A stretch of 64,000 nucleotides of DNA from Candidatus Bathyarchaeia archaeon (GCA_050012255.1 JBEKHN010000004.1:58267-122266), one strand, 5' to 3'; counted from the stretch's first letter, positions 2,292 to 55,526 are shown. Numbers and translations: made by a program. Notes: generated by a model from the letters alone, not told the origin.

Positions 2292-2725
2292 AGAGGCACA
2301 AACTCGTAGGTTAGGTTTCCTTCAGTTGTGACTTTGGCCACTAGCTTTGCTCTCATGCCAACTTTTACTTCTGAAAGCTTGAATCCCGTTAGCCATGCAA
2401 GCACCTTCACACCTTCCTTCAACCTTCCGATAGCGACGGTGTACGGCTTGTTTTGCTGGAAAGTGGTCGGCCTTACGACTACATGTGTGAATGTTTCAAT
2501 TTCTGCCTCGCTGCTAAGCTCAACCCACTCAAGACCCGTGGATAAGCATTCAGCGCAGTCAACGTTTGGCGGGAAATAGATTTTTCCGCAGCCTTTGCAT
2601 CTGGTCGCGTAGACTTTTCCCTCTCTTAGGCCTTCGTAAAACTTCAGATTCTTACTTATCGGTATCTCCTGAACAATCTTTATTTCCCTTGATTTTATCG
2701 ATGGCATCGAGGGCATTCTATTCAC
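2279..2725 (-). CDS. Zn-ribbon/OB-fold protein (DUF35 family), thiolase partner
   Basis: CKGCG...CAEC zinc ribbon plus OB-fold; overlaps the thiolase stop. Confidence 0.88.
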   Translation of the reverse strand: MNRMPSMPSIKSREIKIVQEIPISKNLKFYEGLREGKVYATRCKGCGKIYFPPNVDCAECLSTGLEWVELSSEAEIETFTHVVVRPTTFQQNKPYTVAIGRLKEGVKVLAWLTGFKLSEVKVGMRAKLVAKVTTEGNLTYEFVPLQPR

Positions 2726-3900: not shown

Positions 3901-3955
3901 ACCCTTCTAGTTAACTTAAGATGCACAAAAAAGTGAAAGAAAGAGGATGTTAAAG

Positions 3956-4750: not shown

Positions 4751-4800
4751 CTATTTCCTTGTTTGTTTCATCTGCATATATGATTTTTTCACTTAGCCCT

Positions 4801-7157: not shown

Positions 7158-7246
7158 CGTTTAATGAATTGCTTGAAGAACGCTAATAAAACTTTTGAAC
7201 GTATGATCCATGTTAGAAAAACGAATAAGAAGGACGGTAGACTTTA

Positions 7247-8401: not shown

Positions 8402-8418
8402 AATCCTCTTTCTCCCGT

Positions 8419-9414: not shown

Positions 9415-9415
9415 G

Positions 9416-29453: not shown

Positions 29454-32400
29454 TTACTTGTAGGTTTTTCCGAAATTTCCAGCTAATATAATGATGTCGA
29501 AGATGTCGACGATGCCGTCTTGGTTGAGATCCGCATCGGAATTCCATAATGGATGCCCAGGATAACACCCGAATGCTGATGCTTCTTGTATTGCATCATA
29601 CATATCAACGGTTCCATCGTGATTTAGGTCTCCAAGAACAGGGACGTAGGGCTGGATGAATGGGTATCTATCAGTGTTGTTTGCGTCTACGATGTATCGA
29701 GTGTCCCCTATTCCGTCACTTCCCGCCTCATTTTGATAAGGACCACTGGAGAAGTCAACACTAGCATAGTCGCTCCAGTAGTTTCCTCCAGAAGGATAGC
29801 CATCATCCCAAATGTTGACTGAGTTAAGACTGAGTGCTTGTTGCGTGTTCTTGAAGTTGTTATGGTATATCGTGTTGTTGTTGCTCTGGTCTTTTAGCCC
29901 GTACAGACCCCAATAACCTATGCTTATGCCGTAATAGTTGTTTGAGAGGGTGTTCTGAAGAATGGTGTTGTCGTTGGAAAACCACTCCAGGTATATTCCT
30001 GCTCCGATCAAAAAGGTATTGTTTGCAACCTTGTTTCTTCTTATTGTGTTGCGCGTGGCTCCACTGAGAGCTATTCCAGCTAAGCTACGAGTACCGCCTG
30101 AGACTTTGTTGCTGATAATTATGTTGTCGGTAGCATAATATGAGATAACGCCCACGATGTTTTCAAGTATCGTATTGCTGTCAATGCTGTTGTTCGGGGA
30201 TGCAGTTATGTCTATACCGACACTGGCGGTTGTTACCGTGTTTCCAGCAATCGTATTACGTTCAGAATAGTATAGGCCGATGCCGTCCCACCCACTGTTT
30301 GCTACGTTGCTTCCACTCACGATGTTGCTGTTGGAGCCCCATAGGTAGATGCCGTTGTAATTGTCTGAAGCAATCACGTTCGTTATTGTGGACTCAGTCG
30401 TGTACGCGAACAACACCCCTTGCCCATTGTTTGAAAGGTTCAGATCGTTCACTGAGATGCCTGTGGAATTGACAACTGCCACATACCCCACATTTGCTGG
30501 AACCTGCTTATCACGCTGATTAATGAGATAGTAAACTTGCTTTCCATTCACAGCGTTTGAAGTATCCACATCATTAACATAATCTGAAAGGGAAGCACCG
30601 TAAACTCCAAAGTTGTATGAATTGCCCGTCATGTCGTTGTTTCTGAGAGTGTTGCTGCCAGAATTATGTAGATAGACTCCTTGATTGTTGTTTACTATGG
30701 CATTATTGCTAATGGTGTTGCGGGCGGAAGAGTCTAAGTACAGTCCCGTTCCCATCGTACCGTTTGACACGGCGTTGCCGCTAATCGTGTTGTTCTCAGC
30801 GGACAACCATAAACCAATGCCAATTTCATTCTTTGTAACCGCATTGTCGCCAACAGAGTTATCGTTGGAGCTGATGAGCTCAATGCCACGGTTACCTTCT
30901 GAAGTCACTGTGTTCCTGACCAAAGTGTTGTTGTTGGAACTGTACAGGTAGATGCCGTACGTGTTATTCAAGGCGTTCACATTTTCTATGAGGCATCCAG
31001 AAGCATACGCGAGGAGCACGCCTTGAACATTGTTTGTCACGTTTAAGCCTCTCACGGAAATGTTCGTTGAGTTCACAATGCTCACGTACCCTGCGTCGGC
31101 TGGGATCTCCCTGTCTTTTTGATTCAACCAGTAATAGACCGGTCTGCCTTCAACCGTGTTAGAAGCATCCACGTCTTGAATGAAATGTGACAGGTCACTG
31201 CCTGTGACGCCGAAGTTGTATCTGTTCGCCGTCATGCTGTTATTTTTCAGGACGCTGTAGCTTGATTCTTCAATGAGCAGACCAGCCGTGTTGTTTGACA
31301 CCTCGTTGCCATTGATTGTGTTGCGACTTGATTTCTGCACGTAGAGGCCAAGGCCATTGTTCAGCAATTTGTTGAAGTCAATTGTGTGCCCCTCTGAATA
31401 GTACAGGTCAATGCCCTCTTCATTACGCATTAACATGTTGTCTCTAACGTTGTTACTCTCAGACTCGTCGATATAGATGCCGATGTAGTTGTTTGATGCG
31501 GCGTTACTATCAACCGAATTGTTGTGTGAAAATGCAAGGCGCAAACCATAGTAGTTGTCTGAAGCATTCACGTTCTCTACGTAAGAATTAACGGTGGCGA
31601 CGAAGAGCACGCCCTCCTGGTTGCTTCGAAGTTGCAAGTCTCTCACGATGATATTTGAGGAATTTACTATTGCCACATAGCCAGCGTCTGCTGGAGCAGT
31701 ACGGCTGTCTTGGTTCACCAAATAGTACACAGATTTGCCATTAACCGTGTTCGAAGCATCTACGTCATGAATGAAATCCGTGACAGAATAACCCTCAACC
31801 CCAAAATTGTACTTGTTGCCTGTCATGTTATTGTTTCTGAGCGTGGCGTTTACAGCACCGTACAAGAGTATCCCATGATAGTTGTTCATAGTCGTCGTAT
31901 CAGTGATTGTCACTCCTTCTGAAGCGACAAAGATACCAGCGTAGTCCAAAGAATAGAGACTATTCTGAAGCGTGAAACCACTGATCTTGACGTAGTTTGC
32001 TGTCACAAGTATGACATCTTTCATTCTTTGGCCGTCAATGATAGTACGGCTTCGGTCTTCTCCAACGAGAGTTAAACCTTCTTTGTTTATCCATACGTTT
32101 TCGTAGTATGTTCCTGAAGCCACAGAGATTGTGTCTCCTTCGAATGCTGCACTTATTGCATCCTGTATCTTTGGATAATCATGAGGGACTCTGATAACTT
32201 GCGGAGCCCTGACGGTTACTTGATTGGATAGAAAATTGTTATTGACAATAGCTTCTCCACTTACGGGCAGTATGTAGCATGTAACATTGTACGCTCCCTG
32301 GATGGTTGGCGTCCACGAGTAACTCAAAGAAGCAGACGCTCCACTCACCAAAAAGTCAATGGCTTGAGATTGGACAACGCCACCGTTTACCAACAACTCG

Positions 32401-33983
32401 ACGGTTATGCCACTTTCATTACTCTTTCCCATGTCAAGTATAGTTGTGTTGACAACGGCTTCATTTCCAAGTTTCAGATACGGAGGCGTCTTCAAGCTTA
32501 AGACAAGGACGTCATGATCTGACGGGCCTTGCTCCACCGCTTTTCTTGCGTTGACTCTTCCAAATCCGTAGTAAACGTCAAAACCTGGGGCGCCCAAGTC
32601 GTCCGCAGTGTACTGCAGCTGAGCCCACACTTGATCTCGAGTCATATTGGGGAACATGCTCCAAATCAAGGCTGCAACACCTGAAACATGGGGCGTTGCC
32701 ATTGAAGTTCCACTCATGTATGCATAAGTGCCGCCCAAGACTGTTGAGTAGATGTTGACGCCAGGAGCCGCGACTTTCAACCAGTCTCCGTAATTAGTGA
32801 ATGAAGCAGGGTTGTCAAGCTCATCAGTTGCCGCCACTGCAACAACCTCGTCAAAAGCGGCAGGATAATGCTTAACGTTGGTTGCATCGTTCCCAGCTGC
32901 TGCAACAACGACCACTCCGTGCTCATACGCATATCTCACGGCCTCATGCAGAACCGTGCTTTCCGCAGAGCTGCCCCAACTGCAGCTAATGATGTTTGCC
33001 CCCTGATTCACAGCGTGAACAATAGCTTTGGCAAGCTCGCTTGAACTTCCAATTCCACTCGCATCCAAGCCCTTTTCACCCATGATACGAACCTGAGCAA
33101 GTCCTGCTATACCTAGGCTGTTATTGATGGTAGCCGCGATAACTCCTGCACAATGGGTCCCATGTCCATTATCATCCATGGGGTTTGGATCATTATTTAC
33201 CCAATTGTAGCCCAATGCAACATAGTTAGCGGCGAGGTCAGGATGTTGCCAGTCAATGCCAGTGTCAACCACTGCCACAAGAATTGAGTGACTGCCCACG
33301 GTTGTGTTCCAGGCCCAATCAGCCTCTATTGTGCGGAGCCCCCATTGTTTAGACCATTCAGGATCATTTGGAACGGCGTCAATCTGATACCTCATGTTGG
33401 GCTCAATGTAACTTGCTAAGCCACCCTTCTCAGCTTCTGACACGAAAGAATCAAGAGTTGATAGAGGTACGTCAGCTACTATGGCCTGGGTATTTTCCCC
33501 CATCAAAACCGAGTCCACAGGTCCCCCACCACTTTCTATCAGACGATCAACAAGTTCGTGGTAGTTGCCTTGTCCTGTGTTGTTAATTCCTATCACTAGC
33601 TCAACGGAGTTTCCGTTTACATAAGCAAAATCTCTCCATTGCGTTGACTGCTTAAAAAGCCACGTCGAAGTAGAGACAAAGTGAGGCTGAGGAGTTATGC
33701 TTTCTTGAGGACCCCAGCTTATGCTTGACACATATTTGTCCATCACTCCTGCCTGAGATCCTCCCAAAGTCCAAGCAATGTCTCTCAGATCCACCGGTTG
33801 TTCGTTTTGTCCAGTCAAGTAACCTTGCCACGCTTGCATAACGTCAAAGCTTCCGGTAGGGTTGTTCTCTTGCTTGGGTATTGTGACCGGAACTGCCTTA
33901 GTGGACAGAGTGTGCGGTACAAAAGTTAGCACGCTTAACACAAGCAGCGTGAGCATTAATCCAGAATCTAATCTGTTTGACAA
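29454..33983 (-). CDS. Secreted S8 (subtilisin-like) protease with Ig/CARDB-like domain, long NosD-type beta-helix and C-terminal dockerin-like domain
   Basis: Triad VVDTG / NGHGTH / GTSMAT; parallel beta-helix repeats; GDLNHDGTVD...ADLNQDGIVDIFD; likely start TTG 33983 after GGAGA, followed by a signal peptide. Confidence 0.88.
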   Translation of the reverse strand: MSNRLDSGLMLTLLVLSVLTFVPHTLSTKAVPVTIPKQENNPTGSFDVMQAWQGYLTGQNEQPVDLRDIAWTLGGSQAGVMDKYVSSISWGPQESITPQPHFVSTSTWLFKQSTQWRDFAYVNGNSVELVIGINNTGQGNYHELVDRLIESGGGPVDSVLMGENTQAIVADVPLSTLDSFVSEAEKGGLASYIEPNMRYQIDAVPNDPEWSKQWGLRTIEADWAWNTTVGSHSILVAVVDTGIDWQHPDLAANYVALGYNWVNNDPNPMDDNGHGTHCAGVIAATINNSLGIAGLAQVRIMGEKGLDASGIGSSSELAKAIVHAVNQGANIISCSWGSSAESTVLHEAVRYAYEHGVVVVAAAGNDATNVKHYPAAFDEVVAVAATDELDNPASFTNYGDWLKVAAPGVNIYSTVLGGTYAYMSGTSMATPHVSGVAALIWSMFPNMTRDQVWAQLQYTADDLGAPGFDVYYGFGRVNARKAVEQGPSDHDVLVLSLKTPPYLKLGNEAVVNTTILDMGKSNESGITVELLVNGGVVQSQAIDFLVSGASASLSYSWTPTIQGAYNVTCYILPVSGEAIVNNNFLSNQVTVRAPQVIRVPHDYPKIQDAISAAFEGDTISVASGTYYENVWINKEGLTLVGEDRSRTIIDGQRMKDVILVTANYVKISGFTLQNSLYSLDYAGIFVASEGVTITDTTTMNNYHGILLYGAVNATLRNNNMTGNKYNFGVEGYSVTDFIHDVDASNTVNGKSVYYLVNQDSRTAPADAGYVAIVNSSNIIVRDLQLRSNQEGVLFVATVNSYVENVNASDNYYGLRLAFSHNNSVDSNAASNNYIGIYIDESESNNVRDNMLMRNEEGIDLYYSEGHTIDFNKLLNNGLGLYVQKSSRNTINGNEVSNNTAGLLIEESSYSVLKNNSMTANRYNFGVTGSDLSHFIQDVDASNTVEGRPVYYWLNQKDREIPADAGYVSIVNSTNISVRGLNVTNNVQGVLLAYASGCLIENVNALNNTYGIYLYSSNNNTLVRNTVTSEGNRGIELISSNDNSVGDNAVTKNEIGIGLWLSAENNTISGNAVSNGTMGTGLYLDSSARNTISNNAIVNNNQGVYLHNSGSNTLRNNDMTGNSYNFGVYGASLSDYVNDVDTSNAVNGKQVYYLINQRDKQVPANVGYVAVVNSTGISVNDLNLSNNGQGVLFAYTTESTITNVIASDNYNGIYLWGSNSNIVSGSNVANSGWDGIGLYYSERNTIAGNTVTTASVGIDITASPNNSIDSNTILENIVGVISYYATDNIIISNKVSGGTRSLAGIALSGATRNTIRRNKVANNTFLIGAGIYLEWFSNDNTILQNTLSNNYYGISIGYWGLYGLKDQSNNNTIYHNNFKNTQQALSLNSVNIWDDGYPSGGNYWSDYASVDFSSGPYQNEAGSDGIGDTRYIVDANNTDRYPFIQPYVPVLGDLNHDGTVDMYDAIQEASAFGCYPGHPLWNSDADLNQDGIVDIFDIIILAGNFGKTYK

Positions 33984-34423
33984 TTCTCCTTCTCTTGATC
34001 TTACATGGTTAAACCAACAGATAAAAGTTCGCGCGCTCCATTCAAAGAACCAGGTAGAACAGTCAAATGTGCGAACAGCAGGTCGCAAAAATCTCTTTAG
34101 GACATGGAATGTCGATGGAAATGGTCTGTGTCGTTTGCAACTAGGTGAAGAACAAACCGTTCCACATCGCTGACATAGCGTAAAATGATGATACGCTTTT
34201 GGCGGAGAGGTCACACAAAAATCCACGCGCCATTGAAAGCCACAATAGGACAAAACATAAGATTCTAGTAGCGGCGTGAAGCATTTTGCTACAAAACCCT
34301 CCTCTTCCGGAATCTTCTCCGGCCAAGAATGCAAGAAGCATCTGAATGACAAAGCAAATCTCGGAGAAGTTCTAATCATTCTAAGATCAGCAGAAAACAG
34401 GGAACTAGAAGCAGGTCTAAGGC

Positions 34424-36607
34424 ATGCCAAAGTTTCGACAGACTGCAGAATTGCTGAGGTTGATGGACAAGAAAGAGCGTATCCGCAACGTCTGCGTAGT
34501 GGCCCACATAGACCATGGAAAAACAACAATGACCGATTCGCTGCTGATCGAAGCGGGACTTCTGCCGCCACACGTAGCAGGTTCAGCAAGAGTTCTGGAC
34601 TATTTGGAGGAAGAGCAAAAACGCGGGATCACGATTAAAACGGCAAACATATCGTTTCTGCATGAAGCAGACGGGTCCCCTTACCTGATAAACCTGGTCG
34701 ACACTCCTGGGCATGTGGACTTCACAGGTAAGGTGACCAGGGCTTTGCGCGCGGTTGACGGTGCAATCGTCGTCGTGGACGCTGTGGAAGAGGTGATGGC
34801 TCAGACAGAAACTGTCACGCGTCAAGCTCTTGAGGAGAGGGTGAGACCTGTTCTTTTCATAAACAAGGTTGACCGTCTGATAAAGGAGCTGAAGCTTTCC
34901 CCCAATGAGATTCAGAAAAAGTTTGTCCATATTATCACCGATTTCAACAACATCATCGAGATTTATGGCGAACCAAGGTTTACAGAGAAATGGAAAGTTG
35001 ACCCTTCAAAACAGAGTGTTGCCTTCGGTTCAGCGCTTCACAGGTGGGGATTCACCCTAGAAATAGCTGAGAAGAAGGGCATAAGATTCAGTGATCGCGA
35101 CATCACGGACGCTTATGAGCATGAAACATGGCAGGAACTCTCGCAAGTTGTTCCACTCCACACCGCCATACTTGACATGGTCGTGAAGAACCTGCCAAGC
35201 CCTGTTGAAAGCCAACGATACCGCGTACCAAAGATCTGGAAAGGCAGTTTGACATCAGAAATCGGTCAGGCAATGGCGAACTGCGACGACCAAGGGCCAA
35301 CTGTGATAGGCATAACTGCAGCTCAGATAGTTCAGAACGAGGGTTTGGTTGCCACTGGACGGATCTTCTCAGGATCTGTGAAAAAAGGCGACAACGTCTA
35401 CTTGCTCGGCGCAGGCAAAGACCATTGCGTGCAACAGGTTTCCCTCTACATGAGTGCTTTCAGGGAAGCTGTAGGCCAAATTTCTGCAGGCAACATTGCT
35501 GCCTTAACAGGGCTTGAATCGGCAAGGGCCGGGGAAACGGTCGTCGATGTTCAACACAAGAGCATGAGCATTCCGTTTGAGAATGCCCAGTATGTTTCAG
35601 AGCCTGTCATGACCATAGCGATAGAACCGAAGAACCCAAAAGACCTAGAAAGCCTTCTTGAGGCACTGAAAAGACTTTCGATTGAAGACCCAAACCTCGT
35701 AACAACGGTGGATACTGAAACGGGTCAACACTTGCTTAGCGGCATGGGTGAGCTTCACTTGGAGGTTGCGATGAACTTCTTGAAGAAGTACATTGGTGAT
35801 GTCGAGCTTGATGCAACTAGCCCGATTGCAGCGTATAGAGAAACTGTTTTCAAGAGTGGAGCCCTGGTGATGACGAAGAGCCCCAACAAGCGTAACGAGT
35901 TCTGGGTACAGACAGAGCCGCTTGAAAGCAAAGCGATAACAGTCCTAGAAAAAAGCCTTTCATACCGTGAAGACAGGTTTGGAAAGAGTGCAGGGGGAGA
36001 GATTTGGGCCGTGGACGAGCGAATCAACATTCTAGTAGATTCAACTAAGCAAGCCGAGCATCTTCAAGAGGTGAAGAACGATGTCGTCTCAGGTTTCTAT
36101 TGGACATGCAGAACCGGGCCCCTTAGCGAACAGCCCTTGAGAGGCGTGAAAGTCAAGCTTATGGACGTGAAGCTGGACAGAAATCCCGAAAATCGAGAAC
36201 CAAGTCAAGTGACGCGGGCAATAAGCCGCGCAATTCTGGGGTCGTTGTTGACAGCTAACCCCACACTTTTGGAGCCGATTTACAAGGTCGAAGTGTCCGT
36301 TCCATTGCAATGGCTTGGCACGTGCTCCAAGATAATAACCCGCAGACACGGAAAAATAGAGGCCACTCAACAGAAAGGACAGTCAGCAATCATCACCGGC
36401 TACGTGCCAGTCGCACAGACTTTCGGCCTCTCTGCAGAAATGCGTACTGCAACATCCGGCCACGTTTTTTGGCAGCTGACTTTTGACCATTGGGAGAAAA
36501 TGCCTGAAAAGCTTGAGGCTGAAGTAGTCACACAGCTCCGTGTGAGAAGAGGTTTGCCGCCGGAAGTGCCTCAACCGAGGGCTTTTGTAGACGAAATCCT
36601 TAGCTGA
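34424..36607 (+). CDS. Elongation factor 2 paralog (aEF-2p) lacking the diphthamide histidine
   Basis: AHIDHGKTT, RGITI, DTPGHVDF, NKVD, SEPV, GMGELHLE, LLEP; domain IV loop reads KLDRNPENREPSQ instead of LHEDAIHRGPAQ. Confidence 0.9.
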   Translation: MPKFRQTAELLRLMDKKERIRNVCVVAHIDHGKTTMTDSLLIEAGLLPPHVAGSARVLDYLEEEQKRGITIKTANISFLHEADGSPYLINLVDTPGHVDFTGKVTRALRAVDGAIVVVDAVEEVMAQTETVTRQALEERVRPVLFINKVDRLIKELKLSPNEIQKKFVHIITDFNNIIEIYGEPRFTEKWKVDPSKQSVAFGSALHRWGFTLEIAEKKGIRFSDRDITDAYEHETWQELSQVVPLHTAILDMVVKNLPSPVESQRYRVPKIWKGSLTSEIGQAMANCDDQGPTVIGITAAQIVQNEGLVATGRIFSGSVKKGDNVYLLGAGKDHCVQQVSLYMSAFREAVGQISAGNIAALTGLESARAGETVVDVQHKSMSIPFENAQYVSEPVMTIAIEPKNPKDLESLLEALKRLSIEDPNLVTTVDTETGQHLLSGMGELHLEVAMNFLKKYIGDVELDATSPIAAYRETVFKSGALVMTKSPNKRNEFWVQTEPLESKAITVLEKSLSYREDRFGKSAGGEIWAVDERINILVDSTKQAEHLQEVKNDVVSGFYWTCRTGPLSEQPLRGVKVKLMDVKLDRNPENREPSQVTRAISRAILGSLLTANPTLLEPIYKVEVSVPLQWLGTCSKIITRRHGKIEATQQKGQSAIITGYVPVAQTFGLSAEMRTATSGHVFWQLTFDHWEKMPEKLEAEVVTQLRVRRGLPPEVPQPRAFVDEILS

Positions 36608-41576: not shown

Positions 41577-43268
41577 GTGCCTTCGATGATGTTTAACAAA
41601 AAGAAACTGGATGACATTCAGAAACAAATGGAAAACTGGGAGAAGGAAACGGTCGTGAAGAGTTTCGACAGGCTTCCAGAAAGAGGCGAGTTGTTAACAG
41701 GCTCAGGCATCCCTGTGAACAGACTCTACACTCCAATTGACGTGGCAGAATTCGATTACATGAACCAACAGGGTTTTCCAGGGCAGTATCCGCTTACGCG
41801 TGGTGTCTACCCAACGATGTATCGTGCCCGCTTTTGGACCATGCGGCAGTATGCGGGTTTTGGTACGGCTGAACAGACAAACAAGCGTTTCAGGTACTTG
41901 CTCGAACACGGACAAACTGGGTTGAGCGTTGCTTTCGACTTTCCAACGCAGGTTGGATACGACTGTGACCATCCCATGGCGCTCGGCGAGGTCGGGAAGG
42001 TCGGAGTCAGCACGAGCACGCTCAGAGACATGGAGATCCTCTTTGACGGAATCCCGCTTGACAAGGTAACAACGTCAATGACGATCAACGCCCCTGCAAA
42101 TGTACTGCTTGCAATGTATGCCGCCGTGGGGGATAAACAGGGTGTTAAACAATCGCTGCTTGGCGGCACAGTTCAGAACGATGTTCTGAAGGAATACGTG
42201 GCCCGAGGCATGTACATATTTCCACCGAAACCATCGATGCGCATGATTACAGACATCTTCGTTTACTGCAGCCAGAACATGCCACAGTGGAACACCATAA
42301 GCGTGAGCGGCTATCACATACGCGAGGCCGGCTCTACTGCTGTTCAGGAAGTTGCTTTCACATTGGCAAACGCCATTGCCTATGTACAAGCAGCCATCGA
42401 CCGAGGCTTGGACGTGGACAAGTTTGCAGGAAGGCTGTCCTTCTTCTTCGCTGCCCACAACAACTTCTTCGAAGAAGTTGCAAAGTTCAGGGCAGCACGC
42501 CGGCTATGGGCGAACATCATGCGAGAACGATTCAAAGCCAAGAATCTAAACTCGTGGATGCTTCGTTTCCACACCCAGACATCTGGAGTTTCACTCACGG
42601 CTCAGCAACCGTACAACAACGTTGTACGCGTGGCTTTGCAGGCTTTGTCAGCAGTTCTGGGAGGAACCCAGTCTCTGCACACCAACTCATTCGATGAAGC
42701 TTATGCTTTGCCCAGCGAGCATGCTGTGACGGTTGCCTTGAGGACCCAGCAGATAATCGCCTATGAAAGCGGAGTCGTAGATACTGTTGACCCCTTGGCT
42801 GGGTCATACTACATTGAGCACATGACGAATGAAATTGAAGAGAGAGCACGAAAGTACATTGACAGAATTGACAATATGGGCGGCGCGGTCGCTGCGATTG
42901 AGAAGGGTTTCATGCAGCGTGAGATCACCGAGAGCGCTTATCGCTTCCAGAAGGAAGTCGAGGCCAAGAAGAGAATTGTTGTCGGCGTGAACGACTTCAT
43001 CGGTGAAGAAGAGGTTCCGATCAAGACCTTACAGGTAGACCCGATAGTAGAAAAGACTCTTGTCGAACGGTTAAAGAAGATAAAAAACAAGAGAAACCAG
43101 CCCAAGGTTAACGAGGCACTAGACAGGTTGCGCATTGCAGCTGAACGCGAAAACGAGAGTCTGATGCCCTTCATGCTTAAGGCCGTCAAGGAATATGCAA
43201 CTTTGGGCGAAATATGCGGCACTCTGCGCGAAGTTTTCGGTGAGTATAAACCGCCTTCCATCTTTTAG
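41577..43268 (+). CDS. Methylmalonyl-CoA mutase, substrate-binding (large) subunit
   Basis: [18 protein letters not shown] (Tyr specificity residue), [12 protein letters not shown] (Arg), [18 protein letters not shown]; no B12-binding domain. Confidence 0.92.
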
Positions 43269-43819
43269 CCGATCATCAGAAGCGGCTCTCCCTCGCTCAC
43301 TGAGGAGCCATCAGAAACGTAAATTTCTTTCACGGCGCCGGCCTTGGGCGCGATTATTTCGTTTTCCATTTTCATGGCTTCGATGACACAGAGCACTTGG
43401 CCCGCCTTGACATCGTCGCCCTTCTTGACCTTGACCGAAACTATCTTACCAGTCATCGGCGCCGTTATGCCACCTTCAACAGCCTGTCTGTTTGCAGCTG
43501 CTCTCTTTGTTGGCGTTGCCACAGTCGGCTCAAATGCGGTTAGAGATGCTTTTCTCGCAGGTACTTTAACCTCGGCTTTGAACGTTGCTTCCTCAACCCT
43601 CACCGAGAATTCTTTCCCTCGATTTATCTTAGGCAATTCGACGTCGTAGTTTTTGTTGTCTACTTTCAGAGTGAACGGTTTTTCAAGGTCCAGTGCGCTG
43701 GTCACGAATTCCACGCTGCGAGCCTTGCCGTCTACTCTGATGCTGAAAGAGCTTTGGCCAGTTCTTGTCACCTCGACCTTTTTGGGCTTGTCGTCGATGA
43801 AAACTTCGTACTCTGGCAT
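43265..43819 (-). CDS. Biotin carboxyl carrier protein
   Basis: APMTG...EAMKMENEI biotinylation motif; extended N-terminal beta domain. Confidence 0.92.
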
Positions 43820-43821
43820 CG

Positions 43822-45366
43822 TTATGCACCGTGCTCTGCTTGGTTTTGGCGAGCAGCTAACACCCAGTATGAGTGCGTGTTTTTGGCTCTCTGCACCGTG
43901 AGTGCTTTCGTTCCTGACGAGCTTTGCAGATGGTTTACAGCCGCCACTGAAAGAGCAGCCACTTCCTCAAGCTCCGCTAGCCTTTCTGGTTGTATTCCAG
44001 GCTTGGCTTCTTCGCGTCTTGCTTTTCTTTTCTTGAAGAATTCTAGAGCGGGTTGTGGGAACAACGCGTAGGTAATCTTGTCTTCTTCAGATTCAATGAA
44101 AGGCATCACATCTTCCGGGATCTTGCCAAGGGCTGGCTCAAGCAGGTCGGCAGGACGGCATGTGATGGTTTTTTCATCACCGATAATTCTCTTCTTTACC
44201 TTCTCGTCGATAGGCGCTGGAGGCTTGCCGTACAGGCCTTTCACGTAATCTTTTATCTCTTTAGGGACGATGCTGTATCTCTTGCCCGAAATAACGTTCA
44301 AGACGGCTTGTATCCCAACGAGTTGACTGGTCGGCGTGACGAGAGGCGGATAGCCCAGCTCCTTTCTCACTTTCGGCACTTCTGCGAGCACTTCATTCAA
44401 CCTGTCCGATGCTTTCTGTTCTCTCAGCTGTTCGAGCAGGTTTGAGAACATTCCGCCCGGAATTTGGTGCACAATTATTGAGGCGTCAACTCTTTCAGCC
44501 TTTGGGTCTATCAGTTTCAACGGGTCGTAGTACTTCTCGCGCAGTTCACGGAAGTACTGTGCAATACCGTTAAGCAACTCGCTGTCTAGGCCCGTGTCGT
44601 AAGGGGTCCCTTTCAGGGCAGCGACGACTGATTCCACAGGCGGTTGTGATGTGCCCCACGCCAACGGGGAGAACGCCGTGTCCAAGATATCCACGCCTGC
44701 TTCGCAAGCGTGAAAGTAGGTCATCATGACCATGCCGCTCGTGCTGTGACTGTGCAGGTGTATTGGTAGGCCCACTTCTTTTTTCAGGGCAGAAATGAGG
44801 ACGTAGGCCTGTTGGGGAGCGAGCATTCCGGCCATGTCCTTGATGCATATCGAATCGCAGTCTAATTCGGCAAGTTTCTTGGCAACCTCCACGAAGTATT
44901 CAACGGTGTGGAACGGGCTGATGGTGTAGCTGATGGTGCCTTGAGCGTGTCCACCCACCTTTTTGACCGTCTTGATGGCGACTTCCATGTTTCTTATGTC
45001 GTTTAACGCATCGAACACACGGAAAATGTCTATGCCGTTCTCAGCTGCTTTCTCTACGAATTTTATGACAACATCATCGGGATAGTTCCGGTAGCCGACG
45101 ATGTTTTGTCCCCGAAGAAGCATTTGAAGCGGTGTCCTCTTGACACGGCGTTTCAGCTGACGGATCCGCTCCCATGGGTCCTCAGAAAGATACCGGATGC
45201 TGACGTCGAAAGTGGCTCCGCCCCATGCTTCAAGCGAAAAAAAACCAACCTGATCCATTTTCTCAGCTATAGGCAGCATCGTGTCCGTTCGCATTCTCGT
45301 TGCTATCAGGCTTTGATGCGCATCCCGGAAGGTCGTATCAGTGATTTTTACTGGTTTCGGAACCAA
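43822..45366 (-). CDS. Pyruvate/oxaloacetate carboxyltransferase (PycB/OadA/transcarboxylase 5S family), no biotinyl domain
   Basis: RDAHQSL, WGGATFD, EDPWER, IKDMAG, HLHSH, HQIPGGM, PPLVTPTSQ. Confidence 0.9.
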   Translation of the reverse strand: MVPKPVKITDTTFRDAHQSLIATRMRTDTMLPIAEKMDQVGFFSLEAWGGATFDVSIRYLSEDPWERIRQLKRRVKRTPLQMLLRGQNIVGYRNYPDDVVIKFVEKAAENGIDIFRVFDALNDIRNMEVAIKTVKKVGGHAQGTISYTISPFHTVEYFVEVAKKLAELDCDSICIKDMAGMLAPQQAYVLISALKKEVGLPIHLHSHSTSGMVMMTYFHACEAGVDILDTAFSPLAWGTSQPPVESVVAALKGTPYDTGLDSELLNGIAQYFRELREKYYDPLKLIDPKAERVDASIIVHQIPGGMFSNLLEQLREQKASDRLNEVLAEVPKVRKELGYPPLVTPTSQLVGIQAVLNVISGKRYSIVPKEIKDYVKGLYGKPPAPIDEKVKKRIIGDEKTITCRPADLLEPALGKIPEDVMPFIESEEDKITYALFPQPALEFFKKRKARREEAKPGIQPERLAELEEVAALSVAAVNHLQSSSGTKALTVQRAKNTHSYWVLAARQNQAEHGA

Positions 45367-45430
45367 CGCTGGCTACCTCTGCAGTCTGCTAGGACTCGGA
45401 ATGTGAAAAATGAGTTGAAGGTGTATTAAT

Positions 45431-46999
45431 CTATAATGGTAAGTTTGAATGCTTTCGTGATGGTCTGGCTTCGCGTTTGGTGGCCAAACTTTCGAGGGCA
45501 CTGATGAGTTTGGGTCGGGTTTCCGCTGGTTCGATCACTTCGTCTATGTAGCCTTTCTGTGCTGCTATGTATGGGCTTGCGAATTTTTGGCGGTATTCGC
45601 TAACGAGTTCCCCGTGCTTCTGCTTCGGGTCCTTTGCTTCGGCTATTTCTTTTCTGAAGATGATGTTTATGGCGCCTTGTGGTCCCATGACGGCTATTTC
45701 TGCTGTTGGCCAAGCGTAGTTTATGTCTGCGCCGCTGTGTTTTGAACCCATAACGTCGTAGGCTCCGCCGTAGTCTTTTCTTAGGATGACTGTGACTTTT
45801 GGCACGGTTGCTTCGCAGTAGGCGTAGAGCAGTTTTGAGCCGTGTTTGATAATTCCGCCGTGCTCTTGTTCTATTCCCGGCAGGAATCCTGGGACATCTA
45901 CAAAGGTTACTATTGGGATGTTGAAGGCGTCGCAGAAGCGTACGAATCTTCCCGCTTTCATTGAACTGTTTATGTCCAGTGCACCTGAGTAGTGGGCAGG
46001 CTGGTTAGCGACGATTCCCACTGTTCTGCCGTTTAGACGCGCGAAGCCTACCGCTATGTTCGGCGCCCAGAGGGATTGAATTTCGAAGAACTCACCGCTG
46101 TCCACCACACGGCGGATGACTTCTTTGACGTCGTATGGCTTATCCGAGTCGTCAGGTAAAATTCTGGCCAAGGCTTCATCAGTGCGGTTCGGGTCGTCGC
46201 CTGTTTCAAGAATAGGCGGGTCTTCCAAGTAGTTGCTGGGCAAGTAGCTCAAGAGTTTCTTGACGATCTGTATGCAATGTTGCTCGTCTCTTGCGATGAA
46301 GTGTGTCACTCCGCTGGTCTGACCGTGAACCATTGCTCCGCCCAATTCTTCGAATGTCACTTCCTGTCCCAGAACGGTTTTGACGACGTCTGGGCCCGTG
46401 ATGAACATGTGACTTGTCTTATCAACCATTATTATGAAGTCCGTAAGCGCTGGTGAATACACGGCTCCTCCTGCACATGGCCCCATTATAGCGGAAATCT
46501 GCGGTATCACACCCGAGCTTGTGACGTTTCGGAAGAAGATGTCCCCGTATCCGGCGAGGCTTGCTACGCCCTCCTGTATGCGAGCGCCGCCGCTGTCGTT
46601 CAAGCCTATGAAGGGTGCACCTGTTTTCATGGCTAAATCCATCAGCTTGCAGACCTTCTTTGCGAACATCTCGCCCAATGAGCCTCCGAAGACTGTGAAG
46701 TCCTGAGAGAAAACGTAGACCAATCGACCATCAATCGTGCCATAGCCCGTTACAACACCGTCTCCAAGGAACTTCTTTTCTCCCAAGCCGAATTCTGTGC
46801 ATTGGTGAACAACAAACCTGTCGATTTCGTTGAAGCTTCCCGGATCTAAAAGTAGGTCAATGCGTTCTCTGGCCGCCAATTTGCCCTTAGCATGCTGTTC
46901 TTCGACCCGTTTTTGTCCACCGCCAAGCTCGGCCTGCTTCTCGAGTTCTTTCAGGTGTTTGATCTTCTCCTCGACTGTGGGCTCCTTTGTCGGGCTCAT
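45431..46999 (-). CDS. Acyl-CoA carboxyltransferase (PccB/MmdA/transcarboxylase 12S family)
   Basis: [55 protein letters not shown]. Confidence 0.93.
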
Positions 47000-47082
47000 T
47001 CAATCCCCCGTATTCTTGACTATACTGTTATGCATGTATTTAGAACAAACGGGAGTTTCATCAAACATTCACATATAGAGAA

Positions 47083-47487
47083 TCAGGGTTTCTCAACAAG
47101 TTCAAGAAGAACGCCGCGAGTGCTTTTCGGATGGACGAAAGCGATCTTTGCTCCTTCTGCGCCAGACCTCGGCTTCTCATCAATCAGTGTTAACCCTTTC
47201 TTCTTGAAATCTTCAAGCACAGCCTCGATGTTCTTGACCCTTAAAGCGAGATGTTGTATGCCCTCGCCTCGTGTTTCAAGGAACTTTGCAACTGGGCTGT
47301 CGCTGCCAAGAGGCTCTAACAGTTCAATGCGACTTTCCTTTCCAGCTGAAAAGAAGGCAACTCTTACCTTCCGCTCTTCCAACTTGTGGACTCCTTCAAG
47401 CCGAAAACCTAGAATGTCACGGTAAACGCAGATTGCTTCATTCAGGTCTTTCACGGCAATCCCTATGTGATCGATAGCTTCGATCAA
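47083..47487 (-). CDS. mce: Methylmalonyl-CoA epimerase
   Basis: [39 protein letters not shown]. Confidence 0.92.
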
Positions 47488-47586
47488 CGTTCATTCCTCT
47501 TCAATGACACTGTAGGGCAAGTCAGCCACGTTATAAAAAAGTTTCCAGTATTCCCTTCAAGCGTTCTCACAGAACTGCTTCGCAGA

Positions 47587-50500
47587 TCATCTTTCCCCTT
47601 TGATCCAGCCCTTGATCCCCAATTCTTTGACTGTTATGCTAACCGGTTCCGGCTGGTGCGATTTGTATGTGCCATTTTCATCCAGATACAGTATAGTAGG
47701 TTTCAAAAAGAATTCTCCCTGAGCCTTTGGCTTAATAGTGAGTCTCACCTCTTCTGTCTTCAACGGGTCAAGCCTTTTTCCCTTCATGTTGAGGTAACTG
47801 TCTTCTACGCGGTAGATTTCAGGTTTTTCAGCCAGCTCAAAACCTGCGGGAATGACCTCCGTGATTTTAATGAGCTGGGCAGAGCTTTTTCCCGCGTTGA
47901 CAAGCTCTATCTCAAAATCCAGGTTTTCACCGACTTTCAGCTGCTTCTGGCGTGTAACAAGGTTTGCCTGCACATTGGCGTTTTCGAATTTCTCCAAGCC
48001 CACCGCGTTTTCTTGGTTTGGTGTGGGCGTTGTGAAAGCAGAGGTTGTTGAAACAATCGACGGCGCGTGCAACACCTCGCTGAGAGACAGGGCTAGTTCT
48101 CGTTCCTCTTTCACCCTCTCCAGCAGCCTTAGAACCTGTTCGCTTTTCTCCGGATGCTCCGCCTTCATAAACGAGCCTGCTGAAGTCTGCAGCACCTTTT
48201 CGGCCATCATGTAAAGCCTTGCTTTTTTCTCAGGATCACTTTCCACCTTAGCATTGTCCATACGCATGTAGGCATCAAGGAGCAGTTCAGTTGCCTTGGC
48301 ATACTCTGATGCGTTCTGGAAGCCAGCCCTTACGTAATGTTTCGCGGCGCTTTCCAGTTGCTGTATGGCGATCTTGTACAATTCTGCATTCCCTGTGTCA
48401 GCAAATTTCGTTCCGGCTTCAAGCGCTCTGCAGAAGCGACTATGTCCCAACGCTAACATTTTCGCTTTCTCGTTCGGACTGAACTCTTTGGCTTCCTCGA
48501 AGAGCTGGGACGCTTCTAAGTACAGGTCGGGCGATCCTTCAGCTTCTGCTCCCGTCATTTTTGCCCAAGCCTGAGAAAGAATCGTGATGAGTCTGAATTC
48601 CTTCTTGTCTTGTTCTGACTCTGCCGCCTGGGCTATTTTCTGAAGAGTCTCGACCGCTGAACAGTATTTTTCTGAGCTTGAGTAGTGGTCGCCTTTCTTA
48701 TCAAGGATTTTTGCCTCTTCGATGGCGATTCTCGCCAAACAGTATTCGCGCCTTGAGTCCGTTGCATTGACCATTTGGGTGGCCATCTGTTTCTCGTCTG
48801 GGTCTTCAATCTTGGCAAGCCCATCCTGGATTGATTTCTTAGTTTCCTCAAAAAGTCTGGCTGCTTGTTCAAAGGCTTGGAGGGCTTCTTCGCTTCGTTC
48901 TTTTCTGCTTAACTCTTCTGCATGCTCAATTTGGGCCCAAGCAAAGTAGTTTGGAGCTAGGTAACTCCACTGTTTCAACGATTTGTGCATGTTGGCGGCT
49001 TTCTCAAAGTGCTCCTCTGCCAAACCACACTCTTGTCTTTCGTGATGATGCCTTGCCTTCTCGATTTCACTCCAAGCCCGCATGTAACACGCATGATCCT
49101 GATAAAAGCCCTTGAGCTGAGGAATGCTTTCTGCGGCGCTCATGTAGTTGTCTGAGGCTGAGCCGAAGTATTGAGCCGCATTTGAATGCTCGCCCAGCGC
49201 ATCATAAGCTTGGGCGATCTTCCAGTGGCACTCAGCCATGCGACTTCTTAGATTGAGCTTTTGAAATGATTCAGTCGCTTCTCTAAAGGCTTCTATGGCT
49301 TTTTTCAAATACTCTTGGTTTCGAGTAAGGCCATATAGGCGGTTCAACACATTTCCGTATTCAGATTGCGAATGCCCGAGAACAGCAAATAGCGATGTTA
49401 AACTTGAAAGTTTACTTTCAACGAATGCCAATTCTTTAGTAAGAAGTTTTAAGGAATTCTCTCTGCATAACGCGACTTCCTGGAACAGGTTCTTCTTGGT
49501 TTCAGGGTCATCTGCTAGCTCGGCAAGATCGGATTTTATCGTAGCTAAGGTGTCCTGATTTATACCACGGTTCCAGTAGAGAAGGGGTGTAAGCTGCTCA
49601 GTCCTTGCAACAGATTCTTTCCTGTGTTGCAGAGCCTGTTCGAGAAGCTTTTTTTTCTCGTCGCGGTTGGTTTCTGTTTTGGCCAAGGCACGCATAATCC
49701 CGCCGAATATGCCATGCGCATACATCATGACCTCTGGATACCCGGAATTCTCAGCCTTCTTCAGCATTTCCGGTGCGGCTTTCACGGCTTTTTCTAACAG
49801 ATCACGCTTTTTCCTCACGTCTGTTTCCATGCCAGCCAGCCAAATGTTGGAATCAGCAGGAGACGCTTCGATCCAAGCAAGGTCTGCGCGTGGACTTATG
49901 AACGAGATTTGAGAGAACTGTTCTCTGGCGTCTTGAATGTACTGCATGACTGCTTTGGCGAGCTGAGCTATCTCGTCCTTGTCTTCAATGGCGTTTGTCT
50001 TCCAGACAGTGTGATAAGTCAGCCAGTCAAGTGCGCATCCGATGAAGAATCTGTCTTTGGTTTTCTTTGCAAACTCTAATCCTTTCTTGCAATTCGACAG
50101 AGCTTCATCCGAACCCTCCAAGCCGAATATGGGTTGTCCTCCAAACACTGGGCATAGCGATTCAAGGACGGCTATCTCTTCGGGAAGCTCTTTGGCCTTG
50201 ACCCAGTAGTCCACACCTTTTTGATAGGACTGTTCTCGCTCACGTCCGTCTTGGCAGTAGTAGCCGAACACTCCTAGACAGACAACCGTTTTTGCACAGG
50301 CTCTTGCGAGTTCGGAAGCCTCCTCGGAAGCGGAAAGGAACTTTATAGCCTTCTCTCCACACTCCACCGTTTCCTTCATGATCCTTACGCGTGCTTGAAA
50401 ATCCGACTCAAGTGTGAATTCAAAAATGGGGCCAATTGACAGCTGATTGTACGTCTTTCCATAATCCCAAGAGGCTTCAGCAGCTTCAAAAGCTTCTAGA

Positions 50501-50901
50501 GCAGCTTTTGTCAGCCTCCAACAATCATTAAGTAGTTTTTTCTTCTCAGACGCTTCGGTTGCAAGCCAGTAGCCCATGAAGGCTATCATGGCTTCACATC
50601 GAAGCATCCTTGGCGCTTTTTCCACGTCACCTAAACTGCCATAGGATTTCTTGGCCTTGTCGTGGTTCGCGATCGCCTCGCGAATTCTTTCCTTACACTC
50701 ATTGACGCTTTCAGCCTGCATGGCAGCTTTGTAGAAAGCGCAACCCATTCGCTCGTAAGTGTCGCCGATGCTGAAGGCGTCTTGCTCAGAAAACAAGCCC
50801 AACGCCTTCCTGTAAGATTCAACTGCTCCCAGCCAATCGTACTCTCTTTCCTTCTCCTTTGCCAGTCTAAGGATTGCGTCAAGACCAGAGGATTCAGACA
50901 T
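47587..50901 (-). CDS. Large TPR-like alpha-solenoid protein with C-terminal Ig-like domain
   Basis: About 950 aa of helical repeats (A..Y..A...F) followed by a beta-rich domain (VGENLDFEIELVNAG...). Confidence 0.7.
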   Translation of the reverse strand: MSESSGLDAILRLAKEKEREYDWLGAVESYRKALGLFSEQDAFSIGDTYERMGCAFYKAAMQAESVNECKERIREAIANHDKAKKSYGSLGDVEKAPRMLRCEAMIAFMGYWLATEASEKKKLLNDCWRLTKAALEAFEAAEASWDYGKTYNQLSIGPIFEFTLESDFQARVRIMKETVECGEKAIKFLSASEEASELARACAKTVVCLGVFGYYCQDGREREQSYQKGVDYWVKAKELPEEIAVLESLCPVFGGQPIFGLEGSDEALSNCKKGLEFAKKTKDRFFIGCALDWLTYHTVWKTNAIEDKDEIAQLAKAVMQYIQDAREQFSQISFISPRADLAWIEASPADSNIWLAGMETDVRKKRDLLEKAVKAAPEMLKKAENSGYPEVMMYAHGIFGGIMRALAKTETNRDEKKKLLEQALQHRKESVARTEQLTPLLYWNRGINQDTLATIKSDLAELADDPETKKNLFQEVALCRENSLKLLTKELAFVESKLSSLTSLFAVLGHSQSEYGNVLNRLYGLTRNQEYLKKAIEAFREATESFQKLNLRSRMAECHWKIAQAYDALGEHSNAAQYFGSASDNYMSAAESIPQLKGFYQDHACYMRAWSEIEKARHHHERQECGLAEEHFEKAANMHKSLKQWSYLAPNYFAWAQIEHAEELSRKERSEEALQAFEQAARLFEETKKSIQDGLAKIEDPDEKQMATQMVNATDSRREYCLARIAIEEAKILDKKGDHYSSSEKYCSAVETLQKIAQAAESEQDKKEFRLITILSQAWAKMTGAEAEGSPDLYLEASQLFEEAKEFSPNEKAKMLALGHSRFCRALEAGTKFADTGNAELYKIAIQQLESAAKHYVRAGFQNASEYAKATELLLDAYMRMDNAKVESDPEKKARLYMMAEKVLQTSAGSFMKAEHPEKSEQVLRLLERVKEERELALSLSEVLHAPSIVSTTSAFTTPTPNQENAVGLEKFENANVQANLVTRQKQLKVGENLDFEIELVNAGKSSAQLIKITEVIPAGFELAEKPEIYRVEDSYLNMKGKRLDPLKTEEVRLTIKPKAQGEFFLKPTILYLDENGTYKSHQPEPVSITVKELGIKGWIKGER

Positions 50902-53757: not shown

Positions 53758-53963
53758 CACTAGTCTCACCATTACGTCATGACGTATCGCTTAATCGACT
53801 CTGAAAGCCAGGCCACTATGCCGTTTCTTCGATCGATCGGCGACATTCGTTGACACACTATTCCGTATTGACATTTGTATTAGCGGACTGTTCCAGTAAG
53901 GCTTAATTGGTTTCAGAACGAAAAAGGGTTCCAGGGTCGGTTGGGGGGAGAGTGGGAAAGAAC

Positions 53964-55526
53964 ATGTTCGCATGCAAGCATAAGATCATTTTGGTCAGCC
54001 TGTTCATGGTCGCTTTCGTGTTTACTATTGCACTCGCCCCGACGCGTGCGGCTGCTTCGAGCGTGAGGATCCAGCTTTGCATGGTAATCGACGGGTCTGC
54101 AACCATAAGCAACACTGAATGGAACCTGACCGTTCAGGCAGTATCTAAAGGCGTCACAGAAACGATTCCGCATGACGGGTCAATCGAGTTAACGGTTGTT
54201 CAGTTCGGCTATTTAGGCGGACTGTTTGCGAGAACCGAAGTGGCTCCCAGAATCATAGACGATGCTTCGTATTTGGCGGTTGCCGACCAGGTTTTGAATA
54301 TACCCAAGATGGGTGGTAGCACACCGACGGCTTTCGGCGTCTATCTTGGATGGCAGGAAATGAGGAACTCGCCCAATTTTGCCGCGACATCGAGGCAGGT
54401 CATCAACTTGGCCACTGACAACAAGCCTAACGTAAGAAACGACAATGCAACGATCGACCTCGACGGAGACAACAGAACAGATGGTGCCGATGATTTGATC
54501 GCCGTCGTTAATAACGCGGTCGTTCAAGGGCTTGACGAACTGGATATTGAGGGCATCAACCTGAGTCCTCTGGAGAAGGATTGGTTTAGAAACTGGGTTG
54601 TGCGTCCGCAGCCTGGTGCGATTGCTCCGCCGTTCTCAAAGACGGGATGGATCCGATACGTTGCTGATGTTTCCGAGTTTGCGGACACTCTGGGGCAGAA
54701 GCTTCAAGCCATTATCGCGGGTAAGGATGTTTGGACTCCTGACGCCTTAGGAGCCTTGATAACAATCGTCATCACTGTTGGGATTACGAGCGTCATTTCA
54801 ACGCTTGCGTCGGCCGTTACTAATCCCGAAACTTTTCCCAGTCAGATGATTGCCCAGAAGATCAGCGAGGTGTTTCCTGAAACTCTGAAAAAGTGGCTCA
54901 GCGAGTTTGTTTCTGCGAAACGCAAACTTGTCATCGACTCGCGCAAGCACCCTCCGTTCACTATCACGAAGTTTGAGGCCGTCTCTTACACCATTTCTTT
55001 TTTTGTGCTCACGCTTGCTTTCGCCTACGTTAAAGCATCGGTGTTAGACCAGATTCTGACGATTATCCCCACGGTGTTGGCTACGGGCATAATAGTCGAG
55101 TTTGTGAAGAACTACACCATCGAGGTCGCTGCCAGAAGCCAAGGCGTATGGACTGAACATCGCCTGTGGTACTTCGGACTGACGTTGTTCCTCCTGTCAA
55201 GCCTTGTCTTCCGAGTGCCGTTCTCGTCGCCCAGCAGGCTCACACATAACGCGCCCAAGTTCACAAAACGCTCACTCGGACTGGTCTCAGCAGCTCAAGT
55301 CATTGTTCCCGTCGCTTTCGCGGCGGTGTTCTATGCTCTCTTTGCCAGCGGGTTCACGCTTATCGGAAACATTGGAGTCGTAATGTGCCTGACGATGGCC
55401 CTTTTCGACAGCATACCGATTCCGCCCATGAACGGTAAAGACATTTACGACTGGAGCAAAATCCTCTGGGTCGCCCTGTTCGTGACAACGTTTACGCTGT
55501 ACATGATGGTTCTGTTCATCCTGTAG
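53964..55526 (+). CDS. vWA-domain membrane protein with degenerate M50/S2P-like C-terminal domain
   Basis: Signal peptide, IDGSATI MIDAS-like motif, VVQFG, INLATD; multi-TM C-terminus with FDSIPIPPMNGKDI. Confidence 0.7.
   Translation: MFACKHKIILVSLFMVAFVFTIALAPTRAAASSVRIQLCMVIDGSATISNTEWNLTVQAVSKGVTETIPHDGSIELTVVQFGYLGGLFARTEVAPRIIDDASYLAVADQVLNIPKMGGSTPTAFGVYLGWQEMRNSPNFAATSRQVINLATDNKPNVRNDNATIDLDGDNRTDGADDLIAVVNNAVVQGLDELDIEGINLSPLEKDWFRNWVVRPQPGAIAPPFSKTGWIRYVADVSEFADTLGQKLQAIIAGKDVWTPDALGALITIVITVGITSVISTLASAVTNPETFPSQMIAQKISEVFPETLKKWLSEFVSAKRKLVIDSRKHPPFTITKFEAVSYTISFFVLTLAFAYVKASVLDQILTIIPTVLATGIIVEFVKNYTIEVAARSQGVWTEHRLWYFGLTLFLLSSLVFRVPFSSPSRLTHNAPKFTKRSLGLVSAAQVIVPVAFAAVFYALFASGFTLIGNIGVVMCLTMALFDSIPIPPMNGKDIYDWSKILWVALFVTTFTLYMMVLFIL

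Follow-up and report, generated by a model that had tools for sequence, protein, structure and literature searches.

A candidate ATP-independent methylmalonyl-CoA:pyruvate transcarboxylase encoded beside methylmalonyl-CoA mutase in a Bathyarchaeia genome

Carboxyl transfer between methylmalonyl-CoA and pyruvate at no cost in ATP is known from the transcarboxylase (EC 2.1.3.1) of Propionibacterium freudenreichii subsp. shermanii (PDB 1on3, 1rqb and 1dd2), which combines a 12S acyl-CoA carboxyltransferase, a 5S pyruvate carboxyltransferase and a 1.3S biotin carrier in the methylmalonyl-CoA pathway and includes neither a biotin carboxylase (BC) nor a membrane pump. That complex is held together by the short N-terminus of 1.3S and by a C-terminal extension of 12S. 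In propionyl-CoA carboxylase (PCC), it is the BT domain that fixes the α subunit to the β core. Related carboxyltransferases serve in two-subunit pyruvate carboxylase (Methylobacillus 5ks8 and methanogen PycA/PycB), where PycB has a fused biotin carboxyl carrier protein (BCCP) and works with PycA, the BC, and in the Na+-pumping decarboxylases Mmd and Oad, whose α subunits and carrier are homologous. Transcarboxylase-type gene sets have been inferred in Asgard archaea by Imachi et al. (2020, PMC7015854). Here we describe a comparable set of genes at positions 41577–47487 of a 64,000-nt stretch (the window, C4:58267-122266) from the genome of a Candidatus Bathyarchaeia archaeon, assembled in 38 contigs of 2.35 Mb altogether (98.54% complete, 5.04% contaminated). 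Labels beginning with G denote Bathyarchaeia genomes (G000 being the source of the window), those with L loci, and those with f families.

We consider it rather likely, judging from the genes, that the 12S-type protein, the 5S-type protein and the carrier encoded here form an ATP-independent methylmalonyl-CoA:pyruvate transcarboxylase. The genome encodes an acyl-CoA carboxyltransferase, a 5S-type protein free of a biotinyl domain, a separate carrier and a biotin ligase, with no BC or β subunit, which is the composition of a transcarboxylase. An earlier, sequence-only reading of the window had described four co-oriented, tightly spaced genes converging on a methylmalonyl-CoA mutase (MCM) gene, and the open reading frames (ORFs) together with Pfam and NCBIfam matches bear this out. 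The four genes lie on the minus strand and begin with a methylmalonyl-CoA epimerase (134 aa, 47083–47487; TIGR03081 equivalog 161.3 bits, cut-off 114.95; Glyoxalase_4 94.8 bits), followed after 83 nt by a 12S/PccB/MmdA-type acyl-CoA carboxyltransferase (522 aa, 45431–46999; Pfam Carboxyl_trans 686.3 bits). A further 64 nt separate the latter from a 5S/PycB/OadA-type pyruvate:oxaloacetate carboxyltransferase (514 aa, 43822–45366; HMGL-like 66.1 and PYC_OADA 177.7 bits), which has no Biotin_lipoyl match in Pfam, and only 2 nt lie between this gene and that of the biotin carboxyl carrier (184 aa, 43265–43819; Biotin_lipoyl 81.1 bits at residues 118–183). The MCM large catalytic subunit (563 aa, 41577–43268, plus strand; MM_CoA_mutase 768.6 and TIGR00641 822.8 bits) is convergent with them, its stop overlapping the 3′ end of the carrier gene by 4 nt.

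The same reading had found neither a BC nor a membrane β subunit in the cluster, which is correct and holds genome-wide by both Pfam and tblastn; it had also proposed looking for biotin carboxylase and oadB/mmdB in the whole genome, and neither turned up. In the 98.54%-complete assembly, no match was found to Pfam Biotin_carb_C for BC or to OAD_beta for OadB/MmdB; of 14 control genomes, 13 were positive for the former and two for the latter. Searching the genome by tblastn with the BCs of G124 and G077 and the OadB of G064 returned nothing at E ≤ 1e-3. The sole CPSase_L_D2 match (24.5 bits) was considered as a hidden BC and rejected, since it is the ATP-grasp domain of SucC, adjoining SucD. 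The Carboxyl_trans and PYC_OADA genes are present in one copy each, as is a biotinyl carrier with the EAMKM motif, and the biotin ligase is encoded outside the operon, at C5:95775-96566. A contig of 550 nt obtained in an independent study, corresponding to 47247–47796 with one differing letter, spans the junction between the start of the epimerase gene and the 1104-aa gene upstream of it, so the local arrangement is not an assembly artefact. This 1104-aa ORF (47587–50901, minus strand) has only a weak match to the DUF11 repeat (E 4.5e-5); it occupies the position where close relatives hold a BC gene and a second carrier gene (BC-BCCP2), and the biotin ligase of those relatives is inside the operon.

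We searched 251 Bathyarchaeia genomes, this one included, and found PYC_OADA in 23, Biotin_carb_C in 37 and OAD_beta in 33. The 5S homologue is single copy in all 23 genomes of the class that have it. A BC is also present in six of these (G008, where it is split over two frames, G062, G077, G110, G124 and G130), OadB in nine (G005, G017, G023, G029, G053, G074, G097, G111 and G164), and neither in eight, whose completeness is 87–100% (G000, G072, G184, G118, G220, G223, G208 and G206). Lack of both BC and OadB does not mark a dedicated lineage among the Bathyarchaeia. With the exception of G111 and G164, none of the 23 genomes has more than one acyl-CoA carboxyltransferase gene, and therefore a BC, where there is one, must have the same orthologues as its partners.

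The surroundings of the 5S gene, up to 20 kb, were compared in all 22 relatives. The order-level genomes have a common layout, epimerase-(biotin ligase)-12S-5S-BCCP facing MCM, so that the gene order, whose conservation the sequence-only reading had wished to see checked, is indeed kept across them; in 11 of the 13 the genes are clustered with the epimerase and mutase (a genome being counted when one or both lie on the stretch retrieved). The distance between the 12S and 5S genes varies, from 64 nt here to 1.7 kb in G184 (L059, 7437–9155), about 7.8 kb in G072 (L060, C35, 170–8026) and about 18 kb in G223:C4. In G077 and in two loci from metagenome-assembled genomes (MAGs), L073 and L074, BC-BCCP2 stands directly upstream of the epimerase in the same operon. 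A BC gene is followed by a carrier gene of its own in all seven BC loci examined, and a BC-BCCP pair occurs with 12S alone in G015 and with 5S in G205. OadB is found in none of the 13 order-level genomes. Loci of f12 read BCCP-OadB-12S-5S-BCCP, those of f26 only OadB-BCCP-5S, and f30 has its OadB on a separate contig; the pump-linked 5S proteins of Bathyarchaeia are 52–57% identical to the one described here and lack the tail discussed below, stopping at about residue 463. Five f12 loci (L063, L065, L066, L067 and L068) combine one OadB with both carboxyltransferases and two carriers, and these clusters may represent one pump serving two decarboxylations or a transcarboxylase with a pump outlet.

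Outside the class, the same set without BC and OadB also adjoins MCM and epimerase genes in a Hermodarchaeon and in MAGs of Archaeoglobaceae, Anaerolineaceae and Peptococcaceae, and several Clostridia have the order 12S-BCCP-5S. The Hermodarchaeon locus (L081), an Asgard example, reads MCM-epimerase-biotin ligase-12S-5S-BCCP-MCM. The present locus differs from it in belonging to another phylum, in that the biotin ligase has left the operon, and in that its BC-less state can be traced to BC-bearing sisters. A two-module layout as in Bathyarchaeia, 12S-BC-BCCP-5S-BCCP, was seen in a Chloroflexia MAG (L107, 6387–11990), where the 12S gene reads as two overlapping ORFs.

The clade of this genome has lost the BC module. 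On the tree of 5S proteins, G000, G072 and G184 (98.5, 100 and 100% complete), all without BC and OadB, form a clade (SH-aLRT 99). In a larger tree of 103 rows, this clade is nested inside rows that have BC in the operon; its sister is L074 (support 96), followed by L073, G008, G077 and G208. The last two are collinear and 94.8% identical over 6886 nt. Their identity ends 58 nt upstream of the epimerase, where G077 has BC-BCCP2 and G208 has unrelated sequence. The G008 BC (L054, G008:C4, 15175–16538) is divided between two reading frames, which cover reference residues 51–363 and 385–493, and is cut off by the end of its contig. This gene may be a pseudogene, as a step towards loss of BC, or may owe its split to a sequencing error. 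Ratios of nonsynonymous to synonymous substitution rates (dN/dS) were usable in 9 of 32 pairs (dS up to about 2.2), dS being saturated in 22 and unreliable in one more (dS 4.6). The values were 0.049 for 12S between G000 and G184, 0.135 and 0.18 for the carrier (G000-G184 and G000-G072, respectively), and 0.095 for 5S and 0.068 for 12S between G077 and G208. Such low ratios indicate that the BC-less set is maintained under purifying selection rather than decaying.

Sequence comparison places the 12S-type protein close to several acyl-CoA carboxyltransferases. In the PDB it matches 1vrg with 737 bits, Streptomyces coelicolor PccB 1xnv with 713 bits (PccB chains in general 682–713) and the Propionibacterium 12S subunit 1on3 with 633 bits, and it scores 853.6 bits against the MmdA model TIGR01117, below the cut-off of 998.8. 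A ten-residue stretch around D415 is identical to that around D422 of S. coelicolor PccB, a residue which we take to have a role in preferring propionyl-CoA; 1vrg has Ile instead of Asp at that specificity position. The 12S-type protein also stops with the core, at residue 522, unlike its Propionibacterium counterpart. Catalytic columns are invariant in all 13 aligned 5S and all 20 aligned 12S proteins.

In sequence, the 5S-type protein is most closely related to the β subunits of two-subunit pyruvate carboxylase, an enzyme from which the present system differs in that the carrier is split off and no BC is encoded. Together, the 5S-type protein and the carrier span the PycB model PRK09282 (positions 2–469 and 461–589 of 591). 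The nearest database relatives of the 5S-type protein (79–100% identity) come from Bathyarchaeota or Bathyarchaeia where the source is named and are annotated as 'oxaloacetate decarboxylase subunit alpha' or 'pyruvate carboxylase subunit B'; outside Bathyarchaeia, taking one genome per species, the nearest are PycB proteins of methanogens, which have the carrier fused and are 60–64% identical. The kind of partner (BC, OadB or 12S only) is scattered over the 5S tree, and the phylogeny of the carboxyltransferases does not tell function here. Comparison of both subunits by trees and PDB matches, as the sequence-only reading had suggested, counts in its favour for this genome, although neither is specifically nearest to Propionibacterium.

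The third component is also a separate gene product, as that reading had it, but the carrier is not a minimal 1.3S-like protein, since it has a conserved 86-residue N-terminal β domain. A barrel (residues 1–86, 43562–43819) is followed by a disordered linker (87–114) and the biotinyl domain (115–184), which matches the Propionibacterium carrier domain with a Z score of 13.6. K150, the biotinyl-lysine of the EAMKM motif, is encoded at 43370–43372, and none of E147, M149, K150 and M151 varies among the 22 aligned carriers; conservation extends over the whole length, N-terminal extension included, in all 13 order-level relatives. An AlphaFold model of the carrier (mean pLDDT 77) has eight strands in residues 3–85 (pLDDT about 75–89) and no helix, and the barrel modelled alone reached a pLDDT of 79.7. 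The whole-carrier model best matches the BT-BCCP part of human PCC α (7ybu_A, E 1e-12, 183 columns), residues 1–184 aligning to 558–728 of that chain. For the barrel alone, the top Foldseek hit among the matches listed was again 7ybu_A (TMq 0.75, rmsd 2.1 Å, 85 columns, E 1.7e-4), and all 18 rows displayed above the first unrelated match, a designed barrel at rank 24, are PCC, ACC, MCC or engineered PCC chains. Thus, in comparison with PCC holoenzymes (3n6r and 7ybu), the carrier N-domain superposes on the α-subunit BT barrel and the barrel-linker-BCCP order is the same; in contrast to PCC, there is no BC domain in this genome and no helix and hook on the carrier. The Pfam profile PCC_BT (PF18140) matches the carrier with 21.2 bits (E 3.5e-4), below its 23.5 cut-off, over positions 33–114 of 126, a partial match that corresponds to the barrel without the leading helix. 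Of the features of a BT domain, then, the superposable eight-stranded barrel is present, whereas a score at the gathering threshold and a helix and hook in the same chain are not.

The helix and hook presumably come from the C-terminal tail of the 5S-type protein (residues ~455–514, 43825–44004), a putative docking element with a predicted helix and hook that aligns with the BC tails of relatives. This tail of about 60 residues matched six of nine BC tails by blastp at E ≤ 3.2e-4 in that tiny set, and both kinds of tail have a common helix and a common motif near the end. Against Pfam, the tail (75 aa) gave nothing at E ≤ 10, the PccX-type family PF26062 included, and for the BC tail of G077 the sole match was ACC_epsilon (E 0.16). 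The HMMER alignment to Propionibacterium 5S reaches residue 496, with the tail portion poorly aligned. The present system has a 184-residue carrier with a BT-like barrel and a 5S-type protein with a BC-type tail, both distinct from the Propionibacterium subunits, and its complex is probably assembled differently. A prediction of the complex of 5S residues 300–514 and the carrier with 12S gave no answer (score 0.02).

In the proposed reaction, the 12S-type site would move the carboxyl group of (S)-methylmalonyl-CoA to biotin on K150 of the carrier, leaving propionyl-CoA, and the carboxybiotin would swing to the 5S-type site, where pyruvate would reversibly become oxaloacetate. Epimerase and mutase would link this transfer to succinyl-CoA. 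As to assembly, the helix-hook tail of 5S and the barrel of the carrier may make up a BT-type docking domain that fixes the module to the 12S hexamer; a domain of this type could dock either module, BC-BCCP2 or 5S-BCCP, of which only the ATP-free one would have been kept in this genome.

Physiologically, the enzyme may take part in a Wood-Werkman-like cycle acting as an electron sink. Oxaloacetate would be converted via malate to fumarate, which a soluble TfrAB-type fumarate reductase would reduce to succinate. SucCD would turn succinate into succinyl-CoA, from which methylmalonyl-CoA and propionyl-CoA would follow; an ACD-type synthetase would then release propionate and yield ATP. TfrA/TfrB-like genes are located on C5 (L163, 6565–12386), adjoining an aldehyde:ferredoxin oxidoreductase, and encode FAD_binding_2 and Succ_DH_flav_C domains and Fer2_3, Fer4 and two CCG domains. 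In G077 (L056, G077:C37, 518–3804), TfrB/TfrA-like genes stand divergently beside BC-BCCP2-epimerase-biotin ligase-12S-5S-BCCP, which with MCM makes a succinate-pathway supercluster. The genome also holds SucCD, a class I fumarase, genes of the malate/lactate dehydrogenase family, a malic enzyme and three ACD-like acyl-CoA synthetases, and a second MCM large subunit, 61% identical to that in the window, is encoded at C12:35399-39000 (L165, 6391–10004). The latter shares its operon with genes for the B12-binding small subunit, MeaB and a corrinoid adenosyltransferase, while no small subunit adjoins the MCM of the window. With these genes, the set for a Wood-Werkman-type cycle is complete. Malic enzyme occurs in 13 of the 13 order-level genomes, in which archaeal-type PEP carboxylase and GTP-PEPCK were not found (0/13 each) and ATP-PEPCK was found once (1/13), in a genome other than this one.

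From its domain pattern, we assumed that the fumarate reductase is thiol-linked. With a soluble enzyme of the thiol type, the oxidation of succinate is unfavourable, and for this reason we prefer the propionate-forming direction. The reverse, in which propionyl-CoA from β-oxidation is carried to succinate, is a possible direction that we rank second. Genes for β-oxidation are present in the window, as the sequence-only reading had noted, at 2722–10204: thiolase, enoyl-CoA hydratase, two acyl-CoA dehydrogenases, 3-hydroxyacyl-CoA dehydrogenase and ETF α/β.

Several other explanations deserve consideration. An ordinary ATP-dependent PCC and pyruvate carboxylase could be encoded, with BC-BCCP2 lying in an assembly gap or having been binned out; the assembly is in 38 contigs and, of the six 5S genomes that have a BC, four carry it on a contig other than that of the operon. 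We nevertheless give this only a small chance, because neither Pfam nor tblastn detected a BC in so complete a genome, two sister genomes, each 100% complete, lack it as well, the syntenic site is filled by another gene across a junction bridged in an independent sample, and the comparison of G077 with G208 gives a clean breakpoint between presence and absence. Where a BC is truly missing, the subunits might act as an uncoupled soluble decarboxylase, in which carboxybiotin decays and methylmalonyl-CoA or oxaloacetate is slowly decarboxylated. Although other Bathyarchaeia families do pair both carboxyltransferases with OadB, this genome encodes no catalyst that would decarboxylate carboxybiotin, one of the two transferases would suffice for such a reaction, and both of them, with the carrier, are kept under strong purifying selection in genomes devoid of BC and OadB. 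The chance of such an activity being the true one therefore appears slight.

A transcarboxylase might also use other substrates, such as malonyl-CoA/acetyl-CoA paired with pyruvate, or a 2-oxoacid other than pyruvate at the 5S-type site. Promiscuity is common among Carboxyl_trans enzymes of this clade, and the best PDB match, 1vrg, has Ile rather than Asp at the specificity position. An archaeal ACC/PCC accepts both substrates (PMC3199775). The PccB Asp is kept here, however, and the neighbouring epimerase and mutase act only on methylmalonyl-CoA, leaving slender prospects for a different substrate pair. Nor is a decaying relic left by loss of the BC module more than barely credible: the BC of G008, split over two frames, demonstrates that module decay occurs in the family, but in the window none of the four reading frames is disrupted, the catalytic columns do not vary and dN/dS is 0.03–0.18. 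The transcarboxylase interpretation put forward by the sequence-only reading is thus supported for this genome, at the genomic level, by composition, absent partners, conservation, selection and context.

Some observations weigh against assigning a transcarboxylase. In the PDB, the 5S-type protein matches the pyruvate carboxylase β subunit 5ks8_C (543 bits) and Vibrio OadA 2nx9 (509 bits) ahead of the transcarboxylase 5S subunit 1rqb (452 bits); it scores 555.5 bits against the NCBIfam 5S equivalog NF008984, under the 827 cut-off, narrowly exceeds the threshold of PRK12331, a model for 'oxaloacetate decarboxylase alpha' (728 versus 718), and falls among archaeal PycB-type proteins in the 103-row tree. 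The nearest outgroups, L074, L073 and G077, hold an intact BC-BCCP2 in the operon and one acyl-CoA carboxyltransferase each, and their orthologues probably also serve ATP-dependent carboxylation. A co-occurring cognate BC or OadB/MmdB had been named in the sequence-only reading as what would speak against it: in this genome there is none, whereas sister genomes do have such partners, BC-BCCP2 in G077, L073 and L074 and OadB in f12 and f26. Because the assembly is in 38 contigs and 5% contaminated, BC and OadB cannot be called absent in absolute terms. It is likeness to known enzymes that suggests docking of the 5S-carrier module on 12S. A CoA-transferase of the AcetylCoA_hydro type (AcetylCoA_hyd_C) was not found in the genome.

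Our literature search turned up nothing joining Bathyarchaeia with transcarboxylase, nothing tying the BT domain to transcarboxylase, and no characterised archaeal transcarboxylase. The function itself is textbook knowledge and its occurrence in archaea has been proposed before, and the surprise is accordingly moderate. The set would probably act like the Propionibacterium enzyme, while its subunits stay outside the families of that enzyme by curated cut-offs. More tentatively, and somewhat short of an even chance, the biotin enzymes of Bathyarchaeia may constitute a kit on one 12S-type hexamer, to which ATP-using and ATP-free modules dock via the same split BT domain; the transcarboxylase here would then have arisen from a carboxylase by module loss, independently of Propionibacterium, and would be held together differently. 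If true, an ATP-free carboxyl shuttle would permit propionate to serve as an electron sink, or propionyl-CoA to be converted to succinate, without the cost of carboxylation, and would bear on life at very low energy yields and on the sources of propionate in sediments. Operons with BC, with a broken BC and without BC, up to 95% identical in nucleotide sequence, provide a natural series for studying how a transcarboxylase evolves from a carboxylase and what role BT has.

Two further ORFs of the window lie outside the cluster. One, of 539 aa (53907–55526, plus strand), matches no Pfam family at E ≤ 1e-8, and the other, on the minus strand at 29454–34589, is 1711 aa long.

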